Positions 21,410-42,247 of a stretch of 61,686 bases of DNA are shown here, piece by piece; positions within the stretch are counted from its first letter, which is position 1; each line of letters begins with the position of its first letter. Under the pieces are notes generated by a model. That model worked only from the letters and a program-made list of their open reading frames with translations, was not told the DNA's origin and did no database searches. The position numbers were made by a program, and so were the translations under genes. Source of the stretch: Candidatus Omnitrophota bacterium (GTDB taxonomy: Bacteria > Omnitrophota > Gorgyraeia > Duberdicusellales > 4484-171); the NCBI GenBank assembly GCA_043823745.1, contig JBDRAN010000012.1, positions 1-61,686 of the forward strand. Reading direction: 5' to 3'.

Positions 21410-21664
21410 TTAGTGGGGATGTTGACTCAAAAACATTTCCTTTATTCTTCGCCGTCCAGTCGTCGACTTGTAAAATTTTTCTTTTTGTCTAGCTTCCTTA
21501 AGTGTTTCAAACTCTTCAATATGAATTACATTATACGGTCGATATGGTCGAGATGCTTTAACCCTGCCAGTATTGTGCAGTGCTAATCGTTTATTAACGT
21601 CATCTGCTACGCCCGTATACGTTCTCGTTTTTGCTTCATTGAGCAAGATATAAACATAATGCAT
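21410..21664 (-). CDS. Small GIY-YIG nuclease family protein
   Basis: MHYVYIL...TYTG.....RL..HN.G...YRP....E.F.....A...E...KS..GR. Confidence 0.9.
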   Translation of the reverse strand: MHYVYILLNEAKTRTYTGVADDVNKRLALHNTGRVKASRPYRPYNVIHIEEFETLKEARQKEKFYKSTTGRRRIKEMFLSQHPH

Positions 21665-21753
21665 AGTTGCGTCCATGCGGCGGATCCGCCTCACCAAATT
21701 TGTGAAACAAATTCGGTGGGCGAGATCTCGCCAAATTTTTGTTTTGCAAAATT

Positions 21754-21844
21754 TGGCGGAGGAGAGAGGATTTGAACCTCTGAGGGACACAAGGTCCCTA
21801 CTGGTTTTCGAGACCAGCGCATTCAACCACTCTGCCACTCCTCC
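21754..21844 (-). tRNA. tRNA-Ser(CGA)
   Basis: GGAGGAG acceptor, CTGGT-CTCGAAA-ACCAG anticodon arm, long variable arm, GTTCAAATC, GCCA end. Confidence 0.96.
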
Positions 21845-21951
21845 AGATAAAATTTTACGCAAAACGCAAAAGTCCAACGGTTTTTCCGCCATCTCGCCAC
21901 CTATGTGGCGGATGGCGAGACCTCGCCTAATCAAATATTATGGTGGCGGGC

Positions 21952-21986
21952 GAGACCGGCACATTCAACCACTCTGTCACCTCTCC
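21952..21986 (-). pseudogene. 5' half of a tRNA-Ser copy broken at the anticodon loop
   Basis: GGAGAGGTGACAGAGTGGTTGAATGTGCCGGTCTC parallels the 5' half of the intact tRNA-Ser and then runs into palindromes. Confidence 0.75.
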
Positions 21987-39441: not shown

Positions 39442-40452
39442 ATGCCAACGAACTTAAAGTTTCACGTATGTCGATGCAGCGTCGATGATATCGATAATCT
39501 TGTTACGTTTGCCTCAAGGCTGGCGCATAAGAACATAGTTTTTTTACCCCGCTCCAAAGAACACTTCCTGCGTAAATATCTTAGTTATGGAGAAAAAACC
39601 GGAACGCTCAATCTTTTTGCTATCAAGCGAGAAGATGGAGATATTGTTGGTGTGAGCGGCTTTGTTCCGTTTAAGGGATTTTTTGGCAACAAAATTTTCC
39701 AGGGCTTTATCGGCACTGACGCGGCGATTGACCCCCACTACACCGTCCGCTATCCCGGCCTGGCCGCAATGCTTGCAATGAGTTATGAATCGATGGTACG
39801 TGTCGAGAAGCGGTTTCCCTTAATTTTCCCTAACGATAAAAAGGTCCTTAAAGCGTTTCGGGGTGTGCGCTGGGGAGAGTTTTCTCGCCTGGAGGAGTGG
39901 GTAAATCCTTTCGCGATGCAGCTTATCCCTGATTTTGGCACCGGATCAATCGAAGTCTCGCGCATAGAGCATTTTGAATCTTCAGACCAGCGGTTTTTTA
40001 AACGCGTGGCTTCGCAGTATGATTTTCTGATGCAGGCGGATATTGATCTTTTAAATTGGCGGTATTTTGACAATCCATATGCGGCACAGTCTATCGTCGT
40101 GGCTGCGCGCCGGCAGGGCGAGCTTGCCGGTTACATGGTGGTGCAGGGCGTGGGGGTAGACATCTGCATTGTCGATACGGTTATCGATTTGGAACACCCC
40201 TCCGCGCTTTTACTGCTGCTTTTTAAAACCTTGGAATACTTTGACCGTACCGCGAGCGCGCGTATCCTGTGCTATATGAGCCACCAGCGGTATATTGAAA
40301 TTTTAAGTAAAATAGGATTTTTTAGACAGCATATCTTAAAATGCCTTTTTTTTAAGGCAGGATTGCTTTTTAGCAACACTTCACATGACTTGATGCATGC
40401 TGGTACTTCTCAGCGTTACCATTTTAATGGGTTTGCCCCGCATTTGTGCTAA
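39442..40452 (+). CDS. Tandem-GNAT acyltransferase 2
   Basis: GFIGTDAAIDP, YDFLMQADIDLLNWRYFDNP, YHFNGF; paralog of 32663-33661. Confidence 0.72.
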   Translation: MPTNLKFHVCRCSVDDIDNLVTFASRLAHKNIVFLPRSKEHFLRKYLSYGEKTGTLNLFAIKREDGDIVGVSGFVPFKGFFGNKIFQGFIGTDAAIDPHYTVRYPGLAAMLAMSYESMVRVEKRFPLIFPNDKKVLKAFRGVRWGEFSRLEEWVNPFAMQLIPDFGTGSIEVSRIEHFESSDQRFFKRVASQYDFLMQADIDLLNWRYFDNPYAAQSIVVAARRQGELAGYMVVQGVGVDICIVDTVIDLEHPSALLLLLFKTLEYFDRTASARILCYMSHQRYIEILSKIGFFRQHILKCLFFKAGLLFSNTSHDLMHAGTSQRYHFNGFAPHLC

Positions 40453-40649
40453 AAAGGGGGAGCATCCCCCGGTCGAGGCCGCCAATGCTTTTAAATCCAA
40501 CCCGCTTTACAGCTTTTAAAAACTCGCTATAATAATGGTGTATTTGTGCTTTTATACGGGGCATGTTTGGTTCTATTGCCTTTAAGATCTTTTAAAGAAA
40601 ATTCGGGCGTAGCGTAGTCCGGCTAGCGCGTCCCGACATTTGCCATACG

Positions 40650-40976
40650 ATGGTATACGTCTATATTTTAAAAAGTAAGAAAGATGCGAGCTATTATGTT
40701 GGTCAAACTGAGCATATTGTTGATAGATTATATAGACATAATACAGCGCAATCTGTATCAACAAAATTAAAGATACCTTGGGAATTAGTTTATCTGGAAG
40801 AATTTAACACGAGGCCACTCGCAGTTAAACGGGAACTGCAGATAAAGAAACAAAAGCGTAAAAAATATATAGAAAGATTAATCAAATCGGGGCGTGGCTC
40901 AGTTCGGCTAGAGCACTTGGTTTGGGACCAAGAAGTCGGTGGTTCAAATCCACTCGCCCCGACCAAAATTTCATGA
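40650..40976 (+). CDS. Small GIY-YIG nuclease family protein (ORF reads through tRNA-Pro)
   Basis: MVYVYILKS....YYVGQT....RL.RHN...PWELVYLEEF...A..RE..IKK. Confidence 0.88.
   Translation: MVYVYILKSKKDASYYVGQTEHIVDRLYRHNTAQSVSTKLKIPWELVYLEEFNTRPLAVKRELQIKKQKRKKYIERLIKSGRGSVRLEHLVWDQEVGGSNPLAPTKIS
40888..40965 (+). tRNA. tRNA-Pro(TGG)
   Basis: CGGGGCG acceptor, CTTGG-TTTGGGA-CCAAG, GTTCAAATC, ACCA. Confidence 0.96.
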
Positions 40977-41127
40977 CCAATATCGGGAAGGTCGTGGGTT
41001 CAAATCCCACCTTCCCGATATGTGCTTTGGCAAGTGTCGGGAAGCCCGATGGTCAAAACCTGTCCGCCCCGATTATAATAATTTTCTTTTTCCTCTTGTG
41101 TGTTGTGGTGGTATAATATTATTTACC

Positions 41128-41571
41128 ATGAGACGTATTGCAGTATTAGTATTGTTGTATCTTACATGCGCGGTGTGCAATGTGTATGCGCTTGGGTTTT
41201 CAACGGAAGAGGCAATCAGTTACTACAACGAAGGGGTCAAGGCTCAAAAGAGCGGTGATTTTAATGGCGCGTTTAACGCCTACCAGAAGACGTTGTTGCT
41301 AGCCCCCGATAATCTTGAGTATCACAAATCTATCCGCAATAATCTTGGCATTATGTATCATCATCGAGGAGATCTTGCGGGAGCGGAGCAGGCGTTCAAG
41401 GAGGCATTGCTTATAGACCCGGAGTACCAAGCAGCAAAATTTAATCTTGGATTGATCTATGACGCGCGCCGTGGTAAGGCGGCGTCATTGCCCTATTGGG
41501 CACAGCTCCTTGACCTGGAATCGCTTAAGCCAAGAGAATTTATTCTGGAGCCCGCGCGTAAGAAAGAATAG
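41128..41571 (+). CDS. Secreted TPR-repeat protein
   Basis: Signal peptide MRRIAV...VYA; YNEGV, NNLGIMY and FNLGLIY TPR motifs. Confidence 0.85.
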   Translation: MRRIAVLVLLYLTCAVCNVYALGFSTEEAISYYNEGVKAQKSGDFNGAFNAYQKTLLLAPDNLEYHKSIRNNLGIMYHHRGDLAGAEQAFKEALLIDPEYQAAKFNLGLIYDARRGKAASLPYWAQLLDLESLKPREFILEPARKKE

Positions 41572-41696
41572 TAATGTTTTCCCTGCCACCGGTTTCTACT
41601 ACACTAAAAAACTGATTGTGTGACGCATGTGTATTAGGTAGGGGTATGGGGTTGGCATTGTGTGTTTCCGGGGGAGTACGTAAGAAGAATTATCGT

Positions 41697-42247
41697 AATG
41701 AAGTCGTAATTTTTCAAACAAGAGGGTCCAGGCGTATTGTGAAGAAAAATTACATGACTGAATTACCCCGAGCTTTGGCACAAAGAATTTCAAAGAAATT
41801 CGATTGCCATGGTAAAAGCGAGGGAGGAGCTCATTGGATTGATATTATCGATGCATCTATATACGTGCAAAATTTATACTAAATTTTGCAAAAATGTGTC
41901 GATTTAAGTGACTCTAATCTTTTTTAAGTCTTGAACAACTTAAAAAAGCTAAGAGTCACTAAGCGCCCGCAATGAAGTCGTAATTTTTCAAACAAGAGGG
42001 TCCAGGCGTATTGTGAAGAAAAATTACATGACTGAATTACCCCGAGCTTTGGCACAAAGAATTTCAAAGAAATTCGATTGCCATGGTAAAAGCGAGGGGG
42101 AGGCTCCTGGACAGTGACATCATCGACGCGCCTCTATAGCTTGCAAAATTTATACTAAATTTTGCAACAATGCGTCGATATAACCAATTCTAAGATTTTT
42201 GTTCGCCCCTCTGGGCCTCCAAAAGTCTAAGAATTGTTAAGCGCCCG
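41697..42247 (+). repeat. Tandem duplication of a ~274-bp non-coding unit
   Basis: 41697-41970 and 41971-42247; first ~125 bp essentially identical; both end in taagcgcccg. Confidence 0.9.

Follow-up and report, generated by a model that had tools for sequence, protein, structure and literature searches.

The locus described here lies on contig JBDRAN010000012.1 of the Candidatus Omnitrophota assembly GCA_043823745.1, within a stretch of 61,686 nucleotides (nt) that was analyzed as a whole and is referred to as the window. Between positions 40604 and 41072, a small GIY-YIG nuclease gene is embedded in an array of proline tRNA (tRNA-Pro) sequences, all parts of which are located on the forward strand. 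The array starts with the 5' part of a pseudo-tRNA-Pro (tRNA positions 1-26; 40604-40630), featuring an acceptor strand that is one G short and a D arm that can still pair. It is followed by the hairpin arm L1 (TCCCGA and nine further nucleotides; 40631-40645), which pairs with positions 41028-41042, by the GIY-YIG open reading frame (ORF) encoding 108 amino acids (aa) (40650-40976; ORF list and Pfam), and by an intact tRNA-Pro(TGG) with an encoded CCA end (40888-40965; called by ARAGORN and scoring 66.1 bits in Rfam). Further downstream, a minihelix (40983-41018) composed of the acceptor-like strand TCGGGAAG, GTC, a T arm, and CTTCCCGA was recognized from an inverted repeat, a profile search, and a panel comparison; it is contained in a hairpin with 13-nt arms of 100% complementarity and a canonical T arm between them (40980-41021). 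A complete 34-nt hairpin with 15-nt arms (80% complementary) and a 4-nt loop (41011-41044) and a decayed tRNA-Pro 3' part (41045-41072), consisting of the variable region, a T arm with a damaged T loop, and the acceptor strand CGCCCCGA, complete the array. Upstream of all these parts, a promoter-like site (TTTACA, 16 nt, TATAAT; 40506-40533) matches the hexamers in 11 out of 12 positions, and no terminator-like site was found between it and the tRNA.

Inspection of the sequence recovered, at the same coordinates, every feature listed by an initial annotation, which had interpreted the region as a dead tRNA-Pro split by a minimal selfish element that replaces the tRNA it disrupts. The genome containing the window (2.1 Mb, 64 contigs, 92% complete) harbors 42 tRNA genes as detected by ARAGORN, among them one tRNA-Pro gene each for CGG, GGG, and TGG. 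The inner tRNA of the array is the sole TGG gene found in this genome, and the initial annotation was right in placing it, together with the GIY-YIG gene, between the pieces of a split tRNA-Pro. Contigs from four sequencing runs, none of them an RNA run, were used for comparison. Those of runs X1 and X2, which belong to one study and may represent the source sample of the assembly, span every junction of the array with 0 differences. Runs X3 and X4, originating from two other studies, contributed relatives with 92-97% identity spanning the junctions from the ORF to the tRNA and from the tRNA to the minihelix.

The GIY-YIG domain occupies residues 2-73 of the 108-aa ORF (Pfam PF01541, E 6.4e-16), and no other domain was found. 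Both the domain and the part homologous to other proteins stop near position 40886, the last 29 codons being the tRNA gene and a spacer read as protein. As the initial annotation had correctly noticed, the frame continues through the complete tRNA; the normal stop codon is missing, and a TGA follows at 40974-40976. An alignment with 18 relatives indicated that the conserved motifs of the family are retained in the window's ORF. Fourteen of these relatives feature cleanly delimited ORFs of 81-93 aa; the remaining four measured 103-118 aa because of in-frame start calls upstream. Shorter overlaps between the ORF end and the tRNA were detected in three related loci (1, 9, and 27 nt in L033, L037, and L029, respectively), and full read-through was encountered at the window locus only. 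The read-through of the tRNA, with the normal stop lost, may lower or abolish expression of the ORF, and the message would end without a stop codon if RNase P cuts the transcript at the 5' end of the tRNA.

The nearest solved structures are the UPF0213 proteins EF2693 (1ywl, E 1.2e-4) and BH0048 (1zg2, E 1.8e-4), both matching residues 3-73. They resemble the window's protein in their size and single domain; however, the similarity is low, these proteins have no known function, and the structure search provided no tRNA context for them. NCBIfam contains no model for the protein, and two relatives match a model for group I intron endonucleases weakly, far under its cut-off. The closest protein relatives belong to other phyla or to unplaced metagenome contigs, namely L036 with 61% identity, a member of the Poribacteria with 54%, and a member of the Levybacteria with 52%. 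Within the own phylum, represented by 301 sampled genomes, the best identity among the matches listed was 51%.

To describe the surroundings of such genes, 46 related loci obtained by pattern searches with the 79-aa protein (40650-40886) were analyzed, 15 of them from species genomes and 31 from metagenomes, with duplicates or near-duplicates included. According to the labels in the records from species genomes, several phyla are represented among the hosts, including Poribacteria, Bacteroidota, Terriglobia, Levybacteria, and others. A tRNA gene called by ARAGORN on the same strand was located at a distance of at most 170 nt in 28 loci, and the tRNAs concerned are those for Ala, Asp, Pro, Gln, Trp, Glu, Asn, and Ser. 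Beyond these 28, one locus (L021) features an array of aberrant tRNA-like units, and two are accompanied by a tmRNA approximately 320 nt away. The initial annotation had suggested surveying small GIY-YIG genes for tRNA half-sites. In 18 of the 28 tRNA-adjacent loci and, in addition, in three weak cases, a fragment of the same tRNA resides on the far side of the ORF. This is a 5' fragment if the full tRNA is located downstream and a 3' fragment if it is located upstream. As a rule, the ORF thus lies within a tRNA gene that has been duplicated in part, with one complete copy being retained.

The layout deduced from these comparisons is that of a class of cassettes, in which a gene of approximately 80 aa for a single-domain GIY-YIG protein lies on the strand of the tRNA, is accompanied by at least one cognate hairpin, and always leaves one complete tRNA in place. 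The join is most often situated at the junction of the D arm and the anticodon stem (26/27), with a hairpin taking the place of the anticodon arm. The window locus shares these traits, featuring a small GIY-YIG ORF on the same strand as the adjacent tRNA, a partial tRNA copy on the far side, and a hairpin at the join. An extended form was detected in the Poribacteria chromosome represented by L021, the second-closest relative overall and the closest one in a named genome (54%). Positions 224-1830 of this locus comprise a tRNA-Pro(CGG), 11 tandem units of 107 nt, the GIY-YIG gene, and one more pseudo-tRNA. Each unit contains a tRNA-Pro copy with a 16-nt hairpin replacing the anticodon arm, and ARAGORN reported these copies as tRNAs with a two-base anticodon.

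In the phylum itself, homologues were found at E ≤ 1e-5 in 237 out of the 301 sampled genomes, often several per genome. Nine of the best 11 loci are adjacent to a tRNA gene and five of the 11 are located at a tRNA-Pro, including two that immediately precede tRNA-Pro(TGG). In genome G183, the ORF and tRNA-Pro(TGG) are separated by 20 nt, and tRNA-Arg(TCT) comes next, so that the tRNA pair equals that of the window; a perfect 16-nt hairpin begins within the 3' acceptor strand of the tRNA-Pro(TGG). The clearest counterpart was identified in G269, a genome of the same class. It features, in this order, a promoter, tRNA-Pro positions 1-26 with the acceptor strand CGGGGCG, a double hairpin, the ORF, an intact tRNA-Pro(TGG), a partial copy of this inner tRNA with a double hairpin at 26/27, and finally a last tRNA-Pro copy, whose positions 27-76 differ in the T arm and end in the acceptor strand CGCCCCG, the counterpart of that in the first fragment. 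The outer halves pair as CGGGGCG/CGCCCCG and the inner tRNA-Pro(TGG) as CGGGGAG/CTCCCCG. Thus, a split outer tRNA-Pro encloses the nuclease gene and a different intact tRNA-Pro, and the idea put forward for the window is real as a design.

Cassettes of this type also recur within the genome under study. It encodes four small GIY-YIG genes, three of which are adjacent to tRNA genes and equipped with pseudo-halves and hairpins, each paralogue having its own hairpin type. On contig C16, a 5' fragment of tRNA-Arg (positions 11-29, 100% identical) is followed by hairpins, the ORF, and tRNA-Arg(TCG) 4 nt past the match. A second cassette of the window itself (21443-21976, minus strand) begins with a 5' fragment of tRNA-Ser (21951-21976; 92% identity to positions 11-36) and continues with hairpins, tRNA-Ser(CGA) (21754-21844), more palindromic hairpins of the GGCGAGATCTCGCC type, and, downstream of the tRNA, a GIY-YIG ORF (21443-21664, minus strand) having 30% identity to the ORF at 40650-40976.

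Genomes of the same genus provided the comparison that the initial annotation had proposed, namely a search of relatives for an empty allele. In G001, the site consists of tRNA-Pro(TGG) and the same TPR gene, and the GIY-YIG gene is absent. In G002, a different GIY-YIG gene precedes the same tRNA, its cassette being present in one full and one internally deleted copy, each of which begins with tRNA positions 1-9 joined to a short stretch complementary to the acceptor strand. The synteny with G001 is confined to the downstream side, and the upstream gene of the window's genome differs from that in G001 and G002. A promoter consensus common to the three genomes was considered as evidence for orthology and rejected; since the same consensus also precedes other tRNA genes in all three of them, it represents a common type of tRNA promoter and is no proof of orthology. 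The leader upstream of tRNA-Pro(TGG) in G001 (L017 840-960, minus strand) was found to resemble the leader of tRNA-Pro(CGG) in the window's genome (C6:93570-93639), which suggests duplication or conversion between tRNA-Pro loci including their leaders.

The origin of the tRNA-Pro pieces was analyzed by searching the whole 61.7-kb window with nhmmer, using a profile built from 18 tRNA-Pro genes of relatives, and by comparing each fragment position by position with a panel that comprised 24 tRNA-Pro genes. The 3' part of the minihelix matched the profile with E 0.0018, and the outer 5' part, with E 0.011 (12.2 bits), ranked directly below the genuine tRNAs. The outer 3' part was not significant on its own (E 0.92); its position corresponds to the tRNA 3' end in G001, and it is followed by a homologous flank and the same TPR gene. 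By direct comparison with the inner tRNA, the outer 5' piece achieved 77% identity over 31 nt to its start, and the outer 3' piece 64%, which is weak by sequence alone.

The 3' part of the minihelix (40988-41018) agrees in 30 out of 31 positions with the corresponding part of tRNA-Pro(TGG) from G183, compared to 75% identity to the inner tRNA, and the 5' strand of the minihelix is the acceptor strand matching this 3' part. Because of both matches, the hairpin that the initial annotation had described as an extra T arm, whose perfect 13-nt stem is indeed present, represents what is left of a third tRNA-Pro, which belongs to a foreign type and has suffered an internal deletion. The outer 5' part is nearest to tRNA-Pro types featuring a GCGC D stem (89% for L021, 83% for L024 and for the GGG gene of its own genome, and 82% for G183); it reaches 71-79% for the TGG/CGG type of the family and 75% for the inner tRNA. 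Being closer to other tRNA-Pro types than to the TGG/CGG type of the family, it is therefore not clearly the resident gene. The outer 3' part is equally distant from every tRNA-Pro type of the panel, with 75% at best. Its assignment to a resident tRNA of the genus type, based on its CCTGT strand, was rejected, the identity being 74-75% to all types alike, and sequence comparison cannot decide its origin.

The inner tRNA shows 95% identity to the tRNA-Pro(TGG) of another genus in the family, 94% to the CGG gene of its own genome, and 89% to the TGG genes of G001 and G002, which have a derived T arm in common. By these identities its sequence is typical of the host family, and its status as cargo is therefore unsupported at the window locus. 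The locus is thus an old mosaic comprising at least three tRNA-Pro lineages; several events are recorded in it, and one minimal insertion cannot have produced it.

The hairpins of the array were evaluated with respect to the claim that 15-bp inverted repeats form the ends of the element and extend the anticodon stem. The inverted repeat is present at 40631-40645 and 41028-41042 with one mismatch over 15 nt (the search tool reported 18-nt arms with 89% complementarity, 382 nt apart), and its long-range stem is retained in the minimum free energy (MFE) and centroid RNA folds. However, the role of these repeats as termini is unsupported. They are arms of a TCCCG...CGGGA hairpin type that occurs in 19 of the 46 related loci, where pseudo-tRNA copies carry it in place of their anticodon arm, D loop, or T loop, most often directly after tRNA position 26. 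A complete copy of the hairpin adjoins at 41011-41044. Neither do they extend the anticodon stem, the anticodon arm being missing. Direct repeats with 11 out of 13 identical positions are formed by L1 and the complete hairpin's left arm (41013-41025), with the ORF, the tRNA, and the minihelix lying between them; such an arrangement is compatible with integration or recombination having taken place at the hairpin, without proving either. L1 also pairs with 40973-40988 at 81%.

The complete hairpin shares its right arm with L1, and the minihelix contributes its 3' end as the left arm. Folded as DNA, it reached -10.6 kcal/mol (z score -4.34), with 1 out of 200 shuffles being as good. Its arms look like tRNA-Pro acceptor strands with trailer and leader, TCCCGA and nine nucleotides resembling a 3' end with its trailer and nine nucleotides followed by TCGGGAAG resembling a leader with the 5' start; the hairpin of G183 is built likewise. 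Under a strict definition, the related loci contained 0.85 such hairpins per kb at distances of up to 350 nt from the ORF and 0.29 per kb farther out, compared to 0.024 per kb in the window's genome. A crude genome-wide count of TCCCG...CGGGA (283 versus approximately 97 expected) is uninformative, because it is dominated by unrelated sequences and by another repeat. The latter is approximately 35 nt long with TCCCG...CGGGA ends and an AT-rich, TATAAT-like center, and is found on many contigs of this genome, often in pairs 76 nt apart (C13:8633/8709, C16:58720/58796, C28:19734/19810, and C42:17578/17654; also paired at C56:34240/34277, and single on C5, C6, C32, and C34). It is absent from the window and distinct from the cassette hairpin.

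The closest described system is the Ssn family (Chenal et al. 2025, PMC11893778). These proteins, exemplified by SsnA of Neisseria meningitidis, are single-domain GIY-YIG nucleases acting on single-stranded DNA, which bind NTS/SRM hairpin repeats and cut beside them, and their genes are often flanked by the repeats. SsnA was described to modulate natural transformation; mobility is not demonstrated in that article, although the hairpin-gene-hairpin layout of ssnA was likened there to an insertion sequence. The similarity to the window's cassette comprises the single domain (94 aa in Neisseria and approximately 80 aa in the window's family), the Tyr/Tyr/Glu residues (Y6, Y17, and E64 in SsnA; Y5, Y16, and E62 as read from the window's sequence), flanking hairpin-forming inverted repeats of 20-50 nt (L1 upstream and the 34-nt hairpin downstream in the window), a palindromic core (TTCCCG...CGGGAA in dRS3/NTS and TCCCG...CGGGA in the window), and paralogues paired with distinct hairpins, as reported for Ssn/SRM pairs. 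In contrast to the Ssn system, the window's hairpin is not multiplied in the genome, and hairpins of its class reside inside tRNA gene copies, and tRNA is mentioned 0 times in PMC11893778. The published degenerate SRM motif, which matched an instance of the published NTS consensus used as a positive control, yielded 0 matches both in the window and in the 123,795 nt of the 46 related loci, and 4 in the whole genome. By analogy, the window's protein may act like an Ssn, without being classed as one.

A second functional neighbor is SegB of phage T4, a free-standing GIY-YIG homing endonuclease of the T4 tRNA gene cluster, described to recognize a conserved tRNA-gene motif (a T-arm sequence) and to drive the inheritance of itself and of neighboring tRNA genes (PMC2330249). 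The abstract of that report does not mention partial tRNA copies with hairpin substitutions for SegB. Both systems have in common a GIY-YIG gene among tRNA genes that is absent from close relatives, with presence and absence at a conserved site being represented here by the empty site in G001 and the other cassette in G002, based on downstream synteny only. They differ in that SegB is a phage enzyme, whereas the window's cassette resides on a bacterial chromosome. Moreover, SegB possesses an additional DNA-binding region, whereas the window's protein consists of the catalytic domain alone, its extra 29 residues being translated from the tRNA gene.

Integrative elements inserted in tRNA genes carry a replacement for the displaced part of the gene, and in fungal mitochondria, mobile ORFs for endonucleases bring along a duplicate of the gene end. 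In these systems, as in the cassettes, insertion into an essential gene is rendered harmless by a copy of the segment, and a displaced partial copy remains at the far end. In contrast, the cassettes are devoid of an integrase, are only a few hundred bases long, duplicate either end of the tRNA, and feature hairpins at the joins. Full-text searches of literature outside the subscription journals returned no account of small GIY-YIG cassettes nested in bacterial tRNA genes, and the class appears to be undescribed in print, with Ssn and SegB as close functional neighbors.

Considering these results together, we assign the window locus, with a probability of roughly 0.6, to a class of selfish cassettes that reside in tRNA genes, and consider it an old and rearranged representative. 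The observations carrying this interpretation are the anatomy of the array, its recurrence at many tRNA genes and in many phyla, the empty site and the other occupant within the genus, and the tRNA-Pro mosaic. In such a cassette, the nuclease would break or nick tRNA genes that are free of it, or cut its own hairpins in single-stranded DNA, and repair of the break would copy the cassette, for which the conserved tRNA sequences would provide the homology arms. Owing to the tRNA that is retained or carried, the insertion would be harmless, and the ORF, having no promoter of its own, would be transcribed from the tRNA promoter and freed by tRNA processing. We infer a homing-type copying, perhaps guided by single-stranded DNA hairpins in analogy to Ssn nucleases. 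The initial annotation, which had proposed a selfish element replacing the tRNA it disrupts, is thus partly supported: its notion of a selfish nuclease cassette that sits in a tRNA gene and keeps the tRNA functional is right in kind, with support from the empty site, the other occupant, and the G269 array, whereas the single insertion bounded by inverted repeats and delivering a cargo tRNA is wrong in detail.

Several findings weigh against a selfish cassette. No instance of cleavage, transfer, or excision was observed, and the contigs of the four runs X1-X4 contained neither a joint nor an empty allele. The duplicated tRNA pieces have diverged (77% and 64%), and no recent event is recorded in them. 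According to Pfam, the protein comprises the catalytic domain only, a DNA-binding domain being absent. The cassette is present in a single copy in the genome, the remaining GIY-YIG genes having at most 36% identity to it, and 18 of the 46 related loci feature no tRNA within 200 nt, in some cases owing to a nearby contig end. The native-looking inner tRNA and the undecided origin of the outer 3' part, as judged from their sequences, leave a carried tRNA unsupported at the window locus.

The high prevalence of small GIY-YIG genes in the phylum (237/301 genomes, often several each) would also fit a function for the host. A domesticated module that is not mobile at present might target the tRNA locus or DNA entering the cell, for example by modulating recombination or transformation, as described for SsnA, the tRNA fragments being by-products of local duplication and repair. 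The role of SsnA in transformation, with mobility not demonstrated in PMC11893778, and the age and single copy of the cassette in the window's genome agree with this explanation. However, presence, absence, and replacement at the same tRNA within one genus speak against such a module, as do closest relatives in other phyla and at other tRNA species, a hairpin that is not spread through the genome, and the foreign-type tRNA-Pro remnant within the array. We regard a host-serving role as unlikely.

A scenario closer to the initial annotation assumes that a single element of approximately 400 bp, bounded by inverted repeats, cut into the anticodon arm of the resident tRNA-Pro and brought along the inner tRNA-Pro, its ends being the sites of transposition, perhaps as single-stranded hairpins of the IS200/IS605 type. 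The 15-nt inverted ends with their stem kept in the fold and the empty site in G001 are in line with this, as are the published comparison of the ssnA layout with an insertion sequence (PMC11893778) and the 11/13 direct repeats flanking the insert, as integration of a circle at a hairpin would yield. It is contradicted by the composition of the locus, in which the inner tRNA is typical of the family and the outer 5' half looks less native, the opposite of what the model predicts, and in which a third tRNA-Pro remnant and a second hairpin reside inside the presumed element. Furthermore, related loci carry complete hairpins beside the ORF and not around it, and, other than in an insertion sequence, the GIY-YIG gene is the only ORF, a transposase is absent, and the genome contains the element only once. 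Insertion in one step is accordingly considered quite improbable.

A tRNA-Pro that bears an intron or functions as a split gene, or an assembly artefact stacking tRNA-Pro reads, is very improbable: although positions 40600-41076 adopted a nested cloverleaf when folded as RNA, in the MFE and centroid structures alike (z score -4.45; 0 out of 100 shuffles as good) and group I introns occur in tRNA genes of the phylum (tRNA-Arg of G269, Rfam 68.5 bits), the insert matched neither Intron_gpI nor any other intron family at E ≤ 10, the intact tRNA was the sole credible Rfam match in positions 40400-41300 with none for the outer halves and the insert, ARAGORN called no outer tRNA when introns of at most 600 nt were allowed and its thresholds lowered, the outer gene lacks an anticodon loop, its T loop is damaged, its acceptor strand is one nucleotide short, and the contigs of X1 and X2 span all junctions without differences, with those of the two other studies spanning two. 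Among the checks proposed by the initial annotation, folding returned the nested structure, and ARAGORN did not call the outer tRNA; at its lowest threshold, it reported one spurious tRNA-Lys on the opposite strand. The tRNA-Arg of G269, located beside the cassette (L068 2144-2360), is split in its anticodon loop by the group I intron (Intron_gpI, 2167-2360) and was not called by ARAGORN.

Proceeding from the selfish-cassette interpretation, we tentatively propose that the cassettes might be natural bacterial 'home-and-rescue' drives, a possibility that we put forward with reservation. A GIY-YIG nuclease consisting of the catalytic domain alone and guided by its own DNA hairpin would break tRNA genes at the junction of the D arm and the anticodon stem and be copied in together with a spare tRNA, and the near-universal tRNA sequence would serve as a portable homology arm that permits the crossing of phyla, with nested tRNA fossils, such as the three tRNA-Pro lineages of the window, recording a succession of former hosts. 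If this holds true, a large share of the small tRNA-adjacent bacterial genes annotated as 'GIY-YIG nuclease family protein' would represent selfish rescue cassettes, and many of the strange tRNA fragments and aberrant tRNA calls in genome annotations would be accounted for. It would also tie hairpin-guided nucleases of the Ssn type to a mobile lifestyle and make conserved RNA genes landing pads across phyla. Small nuclease-hairpin pairs are, moreover, potential tools for single-stranded DNA.

Further features were noticed downstream of the array. Between the TPR gene and tRNA-Arg(TCT), positions 41694-42247 of the window contain a duplication with a period of approximately 275 nt, the 139-nt copies of which are 97% identical. 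Flanking repeats of 59 and 27 nt and an AT-rich palindromic motif of 26 nt accompany these copies, and the duplication yields two short look-alike ORFs per strand. In G002 (L019 1203-2110), a 116-aa ORF is located between tRNA-Pro(TGG) and tRNA-Arg(TCT), where the window's genome and G001 feature the TPR gene, and a further GIY-YIG ORF (1871-2110) follows tRNA-Arg(TCT). These neighboring tRNA genes thus form a hot spot for small insertions.

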